From contig SHMX01000003.1 in NCBI GenBank assembly GCA_008080745.1, forward strand, positions 480,001-512,000: a stretch of DNA of 32,000 nucleotides, read 5' to 3'. Below the pieces are notes generated by a model. The model saw only the letters and a program-made list of their open reading frames with translations. It searched no databases and had not been told where the DNA came from. The translations under genes and the position numbers were made by a program. Every line of letters starts with the position of its first letter. Position 1 is the stretch's first letter. This document shows positions 19,201 through 21,605 of this stretch, one piece after another. The stretch is from Candidatus Thorarchaeota archaeon (GTDB taxonomy: Archaea > Asgardarchaeota > Thorarchaeia > Thorarchaeales > Thorarchaeaceae).

Positions 19201-20906
19201 TCCATACATCGACAGAACCAGACAGGGTTATTGGCGAGATTTTGGTTGGAGAATTCGATGGAAGTGGACACAAAGATATTCTCCTCACTAGAGGTTACGG
19301 TGCCTACGCAGTAGACGGAAGTACTGGATTCTACATCTGGAAGTGGAATTCAACCTATTCATACTGTACTATGTACGACTTTACAGTCGGGAATTTCAAC
19401 GCCGATGGCTATGATGACCTCTACGTACTAAGAAATGATGGTCTATTCTACATCATAGATGGGAACGGAGGAATAGAAGATCTCGAAAGTTGGAGTATAG
19501 ATATCAAAGGAATTGCTTCCGGCGATGTATTGCCTGCTGAAGGAATCGAGTGCCTTACTATTACAGGGGATAAAGTAGGTTCGGTCTATGAAAATGTCTC
19601 GCTGTGTATTTGGGACTCGACAGGAGAACTGACATTCTACAACCTGCCCTATGGTGAAAACTCGTCTCTTAGTAGTGTCTACATCGAAATTGCTAACGCC
19701 GATTCGGAGGGTCTGGATGAGGTCATCGTAAAGTACTCATATAATAATGGCACTCATACCATCTATCAAATTAGATGTATTAGACCTACCACAGGAGAAA
19801 CAATATGGTACAAATATTCCAGCGAAAAAATCAACGAGATCAAAGTGGTCGATGTCAATCAAGATGGTAGTCCTGAAGTGATAGCTGCTTACGATTTTGG
19901 TGTAGGAGCAAATATTCTTCGAGTATATGATGGATTAAATGGTGCATCATTAGCAGAGGGAATGGACAATCAAGCCATCAATCTAAACGCTTTTGGTGAT
20001 TATGATGCTGACGGTCAGGTTGAATATGCTTATCGTTTCTCAGATGAGATAGAGGTATGGGACCTTTGGAATGATGCGGGTTCACTGATCATCGGAGGAT
20101 GGGTAAACATCACCATCATCGCAGAAGATGGAACAGGCAATAATGCAACCGACTCGGTGATAATCGACATCACTGATATTGATGCCCCGGCCGCTCCAAC
20201 CATAGTAAGTTCATCTGCAAATGATACAGCTGTTGAATTCACATGGTCTGAATCAGCAGGTCCTAATGTCGTAGGATATGAGATCTATAGAGGGAATGGC
20301 ACAAGTCCTTCACCTCATGCAATGGATCCTATCGCAGAGGTATCCAGCAGTATAACAAGCTACACAGATGATGAACTCCTTCCAGGAAAATACCATTATT
20401 GTGTTTTAGCCATAGATGAGGATGATGTGAGGTCTGCTCGTTCTAACGAGATTTCTCATCTGGTTGGAGACCCCATAGATTGGTACACATTTGGAGGACC
20501 AGAAACCCCATGGCATATACGACTGAATCGAACCGAGACCGGAGTTGAACTAACCTGGAATACACCATCTAGCCCAGATATAACAGGCATTCGTATTTAC
20601 AGGGATGACGAATCTATCAACGATATCTCAGTTGGTGTTCACGAGGAAGTGGGAGCAACAGTAGTCGAGTTCACAGAGAGCCTCGAAGAGGATGAAGGAT
20701 ACTGGTATGCCCTGACAGCAATTGATTCAGAGGGGCGAGAGAGTCCACTCAGTATCAGTATGTACTCAGGTACGTTGGTTCAGCCGGTTAACACTGCAAC
20801 ACCACCATCCCTGATAGACCAAATACTAGGAATCCTACTGCATCCAGCCACATTGATTATCATCGCGGTTGTTGTTGTGGTCTTGATACTTGTATTCAGA
20901 GAATAG
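16254..20906 (+). CDS. 1550-aa membrane-anchored surface protein: signal peptide, unknown N-region, Ig-like domains, FG-GAP-like beta-propeller, two FN3 domains, C-terminal TM
   Basis: N-terminal MRSKIFALVVITLLVV; about eight GDxNxDGxxD-type repeats at ~18830-20075; FN3 patterns (VEFTWSES..VVGYEIYRG; VELTWNTP..ITGIRIYRD); C-terminal LIIIAVVVVVLILVFRE. Confidence 0.85.
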   Translation: MRSKIFALVVITLLVVPYMLPLTQPISYNHRTDASNLDTINESKKDITHDGYHPMFTDRSVISSHQSSNVTVLARTSTSQDINFEKVWYQEYDVEVLNPNVFRIGRNWVSLDVTFWARLTLTVPVRIQIIEPDTELLSGTVQQAVVSVETLSAPQYCLDVGFDAYLDYRVFKPKELALQSIFDWHVETPEPRPSKYNWSTSFEGEFWAFSPSGRSHAPWGFHHEFVDNPLLYLALRAVPWYEGKLSADIDVSGGGAVASSKTYYWNAVENKVIPIEIDENAGDGDPIELTLSNINYKLRCGIDWFAEVELRTILALFAVIFVRKKIPREILLATFPETDWITLTPTTPDAMSVSMTTTAMRYDHVNIHVKRVISSGDTEPFPIHSNSYATLTLTQWDDFNNWWTVFLNSDSVATFVDLDPELRYCWVLMIDGVVVATSSSFYEMGSSIAPEDEHFVWDNTQENVDLLVTTDMTGYVDITFSAFNSTGEVLESMEDTTIWIGKIEPNHGDYWAAITNPEAFNMAMMGDMSVDLLSLRYLTVDDNGQTFWTQNTRPNGQYKIWVVQGFEYEQGWFTEDQVIFEKEISITQSGNYILIGDQTQGLDSLKILRDLEDPETSSSSTMLYPSYEVSGRYHIGGTVQVRMRVTDDIEVPMAWAELDTGHRISMTSFGNGYFYTEINLRTIETGSQNITLDIMDVAGKTDSIVIPVHIDNTAPIIEDIDITTSSGTSTFSCNVYDDTPIYSAEVYYLNGDVVQSQSLSITQGNPAVISGTFPESDDFYVEISDYVLNTGYYDTTPPNITILNDYERIDLNHMRIHLDVSDFGSGLDSYLVLFNGSLCTSDTGESFVLDLRIPSIGPAQLEKEWNWTLDGGPMYRQLHAGDLNGDGYDDLVWTCLMLYDDNGTTMFLHLLQALDGKTRTLILNETISDSDLGWDNVLDPCIYDFDGDGKDEIAFASHILGNVRLFDGETGSILWTHSLGGYIHTSTEPDRVIGEILVGEFDGSGHKDILLTRGYGAYAVDGSTGFYIWKWNSTYSYCTMYDFTVGNFNADGYDDLYVLRNDGLFYIIDGNGGIEDLESWSIDIKGIASGDVLPAEGIECLTITGDKVGSVYENVSLCIWDSTGELTFYNLPYGENSSLSSVYIEIANADSEGLDEVIVKYSYNNGTHTIYQIRCIRPTTGETIWYKYSSEKINEIKVVDVNQDGSPEVIAAYDFGVGANILRVYDGLNGASLAEGMDNQAINLNAFGDYDADGQVEYAYRFSDEIEVWDLWNDAGSLIIGGWVNITIIAEDGTGNNATDSVIIDITDIDAPAAPTIVSSSANDTAVEFTWSESAGPNVVGYEIYRGNGTSPSPHAMDPIAEVSSSITSYTDDELLPGKYHYCVLAIDEDDVRSARSNEISHLVGDPIDWYTFGGPETPWHIRLNRTETGVELTWNTPSSPDITGIRIYRDDESINDISVGVHEEVGATVVEFTESLEEDEGYWYALTAIDSEGRESPLSISMYSGTLVQPVNTATPPSLIDQILGILLHPATLIIIAVVVVVLILVFRE

Positions 20907-20914
20907 TTAACATG

Positions 20915-20951
20915 GAGCTCATCGTAAAGATGAGCTCAATCTCTCTTTTTT
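20915..20951 (+). terminator. Hairpin plus T-tract downstream of the surface protein gene
   Basis: GAGCTCATC-GTAAA-GATGAGCTC (9-bp perfect stem, 20915-20937), then CTCTCTTTTTT. Confidence 0.7.
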
Positions 20952-21230
20952 GATCTAAGATCAGCGATTAGACTTCACCGGAATATGCCGTTGCACAGAA
21001 CTTGGACAAAGGTGGACAGGTGTCCTCATCTGCTGTCTGTTTCCTGTTTCATCGAGGCTGCATCACCTCTCGCAGAGGATGGGGGATGTCTTACTCTCTC
21101 TCTCCACAGGCGTTTAACGCCTCCGTGCAACTCACGGTGGCATATCTATCTTAGATATGATTCCTAATAACCCCCCTCTTCTGATGGTCTAGGTATACAC
21201 TCCCGGTGGCTGAGCTGCAGGGGATACCAT
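20952..21230 (-). ncRNA. Candidate structured non-coding RNA of unassigned family
   Basis: About 51% GC by hand count. Nested long-range helices whose mismatches become G-U pairs only on the minus strand. See findings. Confidence 0.55.
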
Positions 21231-21245
21231 ATACAGGTCAATACA

Positions 21246-21605
21246 TCAAAGAGTCAATTGATATATGTCCAAGATTGTCCACGTTTTGATCAGCTGTTGC
21301 ATACCCCTCAGAATTAAGGCTAAAGATACCAGTACAATAAATAAGAAACATAATCCAACAACACATATCCCACAAGCCCTCACGCCGGATGTTTTTCCCT
21401 TCGGTTTTACAAAGGAGTCTGGAGTTTTATGGTCTAAAGGGGGCAATGCTCTTTCAGAATCCATTGGGAACGTGCCAAACCCAGAATGATATTCAAACAA
21501 ACCACCACAATTTGAACAGGTCATCTTCACACTGGAATCATATGGAACAGAACCAGAAACGGGTACAGATGTATCACAGTAAGGACATATTGGTGATTCA
21601 GACAT
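21246..21605 (-). CDS. Zinc-ribbon protein with Cys-rich C-terminal TM helix (paralog 1)
   Basis: CPYC-x19-CSNC, then a linker, then CGICVVGLCFLFIVLVSLALIL. Confidence 0.8.
   Translation of the reverse strand: MSESPICPYCDTSVPVSGSVPYDSSVKMTCSNCGGLFEYHSGFGTFPMDSERALPPLDHKTPDSFVKPKGKTSGVRACGICVVGLCFLFIVLVSLALILRGMQQLIKTWTILDIYQLTL

Follow-up and report, generated by a model that had tools for sequence, protein, structure and literature searches.

We found that the stretch of 32,000 nt analysed here (the window) contains, on its minus strand between 21306 and 20988, what is very probably a miniature, non-autonomous element derived from a tnpA-tnpB insertion sequence of the IS607 family; its right 159 nt correspond to a TnpB guide-RNA scaffold, which we infer to be served in trans. 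The region had been put forward in a preliminary description as an unassigned, minus-strand structured RNA of about 280 nt with alternative pairings, lying between two convergent genes. The feature is real, its structure was partly misread, and it is an ordinary transposon derivative of a known kind. Judged by sequence, two known classes both apply, the IS607-family mini-elements and the TnpB omega RNA or reRNA (PMC11061315). Such guide RNAs are transcribed from the 3′ end of tnpB through the right end of the element, and the adjoining flank becomes the guide (PMC10097598; PMC11061315; 10.1101/2023.03.14.532601).

Copies and ends of the element

The region was used to search its own genome, a marine-sediment MAG of 3.16 Mb in 19 contigs with a completeness of 98%. 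Sixteen matches with 81-92% identity to the window copy were obtained: 11 full-length copies (83-92% identity), one copy without the first 34 nt, three 5′-truncated copies that retained the common 3′ end, and one 1.4-kb element bearing tnpB. The repeat unit measured 319 nt in the window and 312-318 nt elsewhere. In a run search, the locus was present in two DNA sequencing runs, both from one marine-sediment study, and no RNA run was listed for it. The element and its ends are as follows.

20988-21306, minus strand: whole miniature IS607-type element of 319 nt, running from the left end at 21306 to the right end at 20988; ends shared by the copies
21262-21306, minus strand: left end, with the GG core at 21306-21305 and two subterminal TGGACA(A) repeats that are mirrored at the right end
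20988-20989, minus strand: GG core dinucleotide of the right end; the scaffold terminates in ...CAACGG

The preliminary description had placed the feature at 21230-20952; the true unit, 21306-20988, is longer on one side, where it extends into the open reading frame 21246-21605, and shorter on the other. All copies started with GGGTATGCAAC..., and 11 of the 12 copies examined terminated in ...GTGCAACGG. The terminal motif CAACGG was likewise seen in 11 of 12, with CAACAG in one truncated copy. Across the 12 copies, the left junction read N-(A 8, G 3, T 1)-GGG, and every junction pair (12/12) read ...GG/G-TATGC. The double TGGACA(A) repeats at the element ends formed an imperfect inverted pair. 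When the copies were aligned, their flanks were unrelated and showed no target-site duplication beyond the GG core. IS607 elements recombine at GG, and their guide-RNA scaffolds terminate in ...UCGG or ...CGG (10.1101/2023.11.20.567912). The GG at the junctions, on the left in all copies and on the right in nearly all, together with the ...ACGG terminus, therefore puts the element in agreement with the IS607 rules.

The full-length copies are 83-92% identical, a divergence of 8-17%, which indicates that the transposition burst was not recent. The left end was the best-conserved part among copies (94% mean pairwise identity). Mean conservation was 92% for the RNA module versus 88% for the tnpA remnant, a gap too small to decide selection; the slight excess could be at most a faint sign of selection within the mini-elements.

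Four relatives of the same family (G004, G028, G063 and G067) carried 22-38 copies of the reRNA module each, many of them on shorter mini-elements of about 280 nt that consisted of a 42-nt left end plus the module. Repeated independent miniaturisation in this lineage is suggested.

Origin of the two halves

The internal parts of the element were assigned as follows.

21173-21236 (approximate limits), minus strand: decayed 5′ remnant of tnpA (MerR-type HTH, serine recombinase), aligned with the start of the tnpA reading frame at C1
21141-21159, minus strand: junction at which the deletion joined the left-end half to the tnpB 3′ half, with the local hairpin CAUAUCUA-AGA-UAGAUAUG

The left 134 nt were 72% identical to the left end of a 2.6-kb tnpA-tnpB element (C1:300666-303309), which splits a tldD/pmbA-like gene; its products are a large TnpB-like protein and a TnpA stub of MerR-HTH/Resolvase type. 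The tnpA reading frame of this element matched Pfam MerR and Resolvase. The remnant in the mini-element covers about the first 25 codons, and its reading frame is broken. The right 159 nt (21146-20988) aligned, both as DNA and as residual translation, with the last ~45 codons and the right end of the tnpB at C2:235701-236936; the tnpB 3′-end homology begins near 21146. Since the left half matches the C1 tnpA-tnpB element and the right half matches the C2 tnpB, the window element is an internal-deletion derivative of IS607 type. By its sequence, the deletion appears to have fused the left end and the tnpA start to the last ~45 tnpB codons and the right end. The hairpin at the junction, which the preliminary description had listed as a competing helix, is kept via wobble pairs in other copies and lies outside the conserved RNA module.

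The C2 tnpB encodes 412 aa and is the sole intact tnpB of its clade in the genome. Its product showed the Pfam domains HTH_OrfB_IS605, OrfB_IS605 and Cas12f1-like_TNB, and the motifs GVDLG, IEDL and DRDHNAARN were visible. The closest TnpB relatives were labelled Candidatus Thorarchaeota. When compared with TnpBs of solved structure, the protein matched ISDra2 at E 2e-75 and ISFba1 (8IAZ) at E 2e-54. This C2 TnpB is presumed to be the trans partner of all the mini-elements. A related genome (G023) carried a Resolvase-type tnpA, tnpB and the same 3′ RNA module in one locus.

The C2 gene sits in a 1.4-kb tnpB-only element (C2:235582-236977; locus L031, 2083-3478) with the IS607-type ends GGGTATGCAAC... 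and ...CAACGG, and the reRNA overlaps the last ~45 codons of its tnpB. Two queries recovered no clearly intact serine-recombinase tnpA in the assembly; at 98% completeness, the assembly could have missed an intact copy. Two tnpA copies were found, both cut short, one of ~150 aa at C16:9230-9938 and one of 124 aa at C1:302877-303248. The C16 contig ends shortly past its tnpA, and an intact copy may be lost at the contig break.

Structure and distribution of the guide-RNA scaffold

The scaffold was divided into the following parts.

20988-21146, minus strand: TnpB guide-RNA (omega RNA / reRNA) scaffold module of 159 nt; 159.6 bits with model R1
21118-21142, minus strand: 5′ hairpin (helix 1), whose loop holds the pseudoknot strand GUUG (21131-21128); 7 of 8 pairs changed on both sides among 73 loci
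21041-21110, minus strand: RAGATH-18-like core, with outer helix CCUG/CAGG, a kink-turn-like internal loop GGAG / CGAUGAA and a variable apical stem
20995-21040, minus strand: 3′ flanking stems, helices 7-9, nested; helix 7 covaries
20990-20993, minus strand: 3′ pseudoknot strand CAAC, four bases before the guide; partner 21131-21128

Eighteen copies of the module, contributed by this genome and eight related ones, served to build a covariance model, R1. It matched 16 places in the own genome. Among 60 further genomes of the taxonomic family, 22 carried the module, in up to 38 copies each. When the own TnpB was used as a protein query, 80 tnpB loci were retrieved, 73 of which were searched with R1. 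The model matched all 73, always on the strand of the gene and at the tnpB 3′ end. These loci came from Thor-, Hermod- and Promethearchaeota, Thermoplasmata, Chloroflexota, Bacillota, Actinomycetota, Chlamydiota and others.

The 73-locus alignment showed standard pairs in 95.2% of cells versus 33.5-48.6% when the partners were slid by 1-3 columns. Changes on both sides were seen in 37 of the 40 pairs, and none of 500 shuffles reached the observed values. A family alignment of 35 sequences gave the same pairing picture. The alignments were fitted to R1 and thus favour its structure; the conclusion on structure is safe despite this because of the effect size and the slid controls. The preliminary description had called for a check of covariation among homologues. 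The covariation is strong, and what it supports is the fold of a TnpB reRNA rather than most of the helices proposed there.

The consensus fold consists of a 5′ hairpin, the RAGATH-18-like core, two to three nested 3′ stems and a pseudoknot. Of the 40 consensus pairs, 38 are retained in the window copy and all 40 in others. The pseudoknot GUUG/CAAC was paired in 99.3% of cells, and its variable position was CG in 42, GC in 21, UG in 4, UA in 2 and GU in 1 of the 73 loci. Core helices 3 to 6 covaried among the same loci, and helix 7 was 97-100% paired with four to five of its five pairs compensatory (ACAGA/UCUGU versus CCGAA/UUCGG). A constant scaffold is followed by a locus-specific flank: in every copy, identity stops at ...CAACGG, and the flanks differ.

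Earlier base-pairing proposals

All strings quoted in the preliminary description were present on the minus strand where it had located them, and its GC values were reproduced (138/270 or 51.1% at 20961-21230 and 32.5% at 4741-4860, with a window mean of 42.3%). Its call of a structured RNA on the minus strand was right. The inner hairpin CCUC-UGCGA-GAGG and the GAGG/CCUC helix that it had drawn are covarying helices of the real RNA. The proposed 11-bp helix GUUGCACGGAG / UUCUGUGCAAC survived in part: its first four pairs, GUUG (21131-21128) with CAAC (20993-20990), are the covarying pseudoknot, but pairs 5 and 6 were unpaired in 24 of 35 and 16 of 35 homologues, and pairs 7-11, pairable in most homologues, compete with the strongly covarying helices 1 and 7.

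Other proposed pairings fared less well. The helices AUAUGCC/GGCAUAU and CACCGGGA/UCCGGUG, the closing pair UCAGC/GCUGA and the alternative AUCUAAGAU/AUCUUAGAU all draw on the flank 20987-20953, which lies outside the repeat and whose sequence was different in every other copy. The flank-element duplex energy was -21.0 kcal/mol versus -20.7 ± 2.8 for shuffled flanks, and 42% of the shuffles were equal or better. A specific pairing of the 3′ flank with the element was thus indistinguishable from shuffled flanks and was rejected. The alternative pairings were mostly chance complementarity with the insertion-site flank. The hairpin AGGCG-UUAAA-CGCCU was not conserved, as relatives pair GGC/GAC upstream in helix 1 (CG 33, UA 32, GC 4), and the suggested pseudoknot between a G-run and a C-run (GGGGGGUU/GACAUCCCCC) was private to the window copy. 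The proposed single-sequence folding check gave z = -1.18 (minus strand) and z = -1.19 (plus strand), unusual on neither.

Rfam matches and the kink-turn-like core

At gathering thresholds, Rfam gave no match in the whole window. When 20850-21350 was scanned by E-value, the sole meaningful match was RF03064 (RAGATH-18) at 21110-21041 on the minus strand, with 27.6 bits and E 0.0043 over the full length of the model; the gathering score of the family is 44.9. Formal membership in RF03064 was therefore rejected, 27.6 bits being below that threshold. When the parent tnpB 3′ end (L031) and a Bacillota relative (L077) were likewise scanned by E-value, no match at E <= 1 was obtained, so membership could not be anchored through relatives. 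A further Rfam scan of 17 loci returned tRNAs only. The sub-threshold match sits exactly at the place of the motif in published IS607 reRNAs (PMC11061315) and hence counts for reRNA identity. The RAGATH-18-like module adjoined tnpB in relatives at 73 of 73 loci. The module is best called a RAGATH-18-like, divergent archaeal reRNA, formal RF03064 membership having failed.

The kink-turn pattern of the window copy was canonical, CCUGUG-GA-GAG opposite CUC-GAU-GA-AACAGG, with GA on both strands. Most sister copies had AA instead of GA on the unbulged strand. In its apical stem, the window copy was closer to the tnpB-borne parent than to the other mini-elements, and this likeness suggests that the window copy may be a separate subfamily or a recombinant.

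Insertion site and host gene

The following features describe the insertion site.

21246-21605, minus strand: host zinc-ribbon/TM gene; the last 20 codons and the stop (21246-21305) are supplied by the inserted element
20968-20987, minus strand: predicted 20-nt guide, the insertion-site flank CAUAUUCCGGUGAAGUCUAA; taken, by the family rule, as the variable stretch that follows the right end on its 3′ side
21305-21309, minus strand: candidate target-adjacent motif GAGGG at the left junction, which includes the core GG

The element is inserted at GG, seven codons before the stop of a gene for a zinc-ribbon membrane protein. Excision of 21304-20988 in silico joined ...CTGAGGG to CATATTCC... and restored a reading frame ending in ...LILRAYSGEV*. 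The restoration shows that the element now supplies the last 20 residues and the stop, and the protein matches agree: residues 95/99-119 matched only other copies of the element, and orthologues matched residues 1-99. The orthologues and an adjacent paralogue of the gene were without the element. The present last 20 residues of the protein (GMQQLIKTWTILDIYQLTL) derive from the transposon's left end, and the native end would be ...RAYSGEV*.

From the position of the right end, the guide is predicted to be 20987-20968, a flank unique to the window copy. This stretch equals the last seven codons (six residues plus stop) of the reconstructed uninterrupted host gene. Published target-adjacent motifs (TAMs) of IS607 TnpBs are G-rich (AGGAG, GAGGG, TGGG; PMC11061315; 10.1101/2023.11.20.567912), and the left junction, a candidate TAM, would be in line with them.

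On the plus strand, at 20916-20950, we observed a perfect 9-bp hairpin, GAGCTCATC-GTAA-GATGAGCTC, followed by a run of six T. It sits 10 nt past the stop of a gene for a 1550-aa surface protein and is likely the terminator of that gene. This terminator-like hairpin explains a spurious mir-2209 match nearby.

Proposed mechanism

Transcription would proceed on the minus strand and would probably start in the retained tnpA promoter region, which has a conserved TATA-like sequence (ACATATATCA). The transcript would run through the scaffold into ~20 nt of flanking DNA, the putative guide, and would be bound in trans by the 412-aa TnpB of C2:235701-236936. Once a serine recombinase had excised the element, the emptied donor site, recognised by its G-rich motif and its match to the guide, would be cut by the complex, and homologous recombination after the cut would restore the element. 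This cut-and-restore model is established for IS605 and IS607 elements and has been put forward for PATE-like elements that lack genes (10.1101/2023.03.14.532601; 10.1101/2023.11.20.567912). As a 3′ UTR switch of the host gene, the RNA has no role. As the two queries found no clearly intact tnpA, present-day mobility, and hence a need for retention, is hypothetical. The scaffold kink-turn may, in an archaeal host, additionally recruit L7Ae. We regard it as possible, with doubt prevailing, that the dozen mini-elements make up a working genome-wide set of guide RNAs that use a single TnpB in trans, each being transcribed from the retained tnpA promoter and protecting its own insertion from loss.

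Alternative explanations

An equally tentative reading accepts the same element and takes it for an inert fossil, untranscribed and unloaded, whose scaffold looks intact because limited time has passed since insertion. The divergence of 8-17% among copies, the failure of the queries used to find an intact tnpA, an RNA module only marginally better conserved than the neighbouring junk, and the three 5′-truncated copies, which represent decay under way, are all consistent with such a fossil. It has to be set against the pairs kept in the window copy (38/40) and in the others (40/40), the one intact TnpB in the genome with all three catalytic motifs, and the conserved TATA-like region of the left end; we consider the fossil unlikely on this balance, to about the same degree as the working guide-RNA set.

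The preliminary description had taken the region for an ncRNA of the host, either novel or highly divergent, or else for a switchable element in the 3′ UTR of the zinc-ribbon genes. It was correct in seeing a minus-strand structured RNA that is neither SRP RNA nor RNase P RNA and in one long-range contact; the novel ncRNA or 3′ UTR switch itself we hold to be very improbable. The complementary segments exist as written, and the element does lie at the 3′ end of the gene and alters its C-terminus. Nevertheless, the unit, of 316-319 nt, recurs at 11 further loci that are unrelated, it is missing from orthologues and from the adjacent paralogue, the defining pairings use flank bases that are absent from other copies and do no better than shuffles, and the folding energy is ordinary (z -1.2). 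A known class, and many dispersed copies, had both been named in that description as outcomes that would speak against it, and in substance both were found, the copies having defined transposon ends. The chance that the region is instead a divergent SRP RNA, RNase P RNA or riboswitch is negligible. Merely short sequence reminiscences had brought these families to mind, and no such family matched the region at E <= 10. As the preliminary description had advised, the SRP and RNase P RNAs of the genome were looked for, and both were located elsewhere, the SRP RNA at C2:303444-303753 (94 bits) and the RNase P RNA at C12:4769-5102 (163 bits). Archaeal SRP RNA (RF01857) and RNase P RNA (RF00373), having no match here, were rejected as candidates.

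Comparison with known systems

The miniature IS607-type element and its scaffold were compared with three kinds of system. The RAGATH-18-derived reRNA of ISFba1 (PDB 8IAZ; Ren et al. 2024, PMC11061315) likewise belongs to an IS607-type element with a serine recombinase, where it occupies the 3′ end of tnpB and the right end. Its described layout of 5′ flank, RAGATH-18 and 3′ flank recurs here as a 5′ hairpin, a core with a kink-turn-like loop and 3′ stems, and in both a pseudoknot links the loop of the 5′ hairpin to the 3′ end (PMC11061315). In both, the guide, here a predicted one, is the flank past the right end and the junction motif is G-rich. They differ in that the scaffold here overlaps the last ~45 tnpB codons, whereas that of ISFba1 starts 13 nt past the gene; the host here is an Asgard (Thorarchaeota-like) archaeon, whereas that of ISFba1 is a gut Firmicute; and the window copy has no adjacent tnpB. 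A further difference is that the RAGATH-18 model, whose gathering score is 44.9, gives the scaffold only 27.6 bits and fails to detect the parent copy at all.

ISDra2 TnpB (PDB 8H1J / 8BF8; PMC10097598) is the closest natural solved relative of the TnpB of this genome (E 2e-75). There, too, the RNA overlaps the dispensable C-terminal tail of tnpB, and the stretch directly 5′ of the guide forms a pseudoknot with the scaffold's 5′ part (PMC10097598). However, ISDra2 belongs to the IS200/IS605 elements, has a Y1 transposase and hairpin ends and uses a TTGAT TAM, in contrast to the IS607-type ends, GG cores and serine-recombinase remnant found here.

The PATE-like elements of Geobacillus stearothermophilus and the mini-IS of CboIStron are gene-less and consist of a left and a right end, as is the case here (10.1101/2023.03.14.532601; 10.1101/2023.11.20.567912). 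They are also alike in that the omega RNA would have to be served by a TnpB encoded elsewhere and the element mobilised by TnpA in trans. PATEs are IS605-type and bacterial, whereas the window family is IS607-type and archaeal and has recognisable tnpA and tnpB stubs. A search of the literature available to us returned no direct precedent for IS607 MITEs with TnpB in archaea.

Implications

A false lead has been removed, since what looked like a GC-rich "structured RNA" between convergent genes derives from a transposon and is no new RNA class. The annotation of the zinc-ribbon gene is corrected as well; readings of its C-terminal tail must allow for the last 20 residues being transposon-encoded. 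The covariance model R1 and the covarying pseudoknotted structure detect the RNA where the Rfam RAGATH-18 model fails. The IS607 TnpB guide RNAs catalogued so far, with their gene-less derivatives, are still mostly bacterial; an archaeal example from the Asgard lineage is now added. If the proposed trans-acting role is true, the guide of the window copy would match the native 3′ end of the host membrane-protein gene, and it would be seen for the first time how mini-elements with a trans-acting omega RNA function in Asgard archaea.
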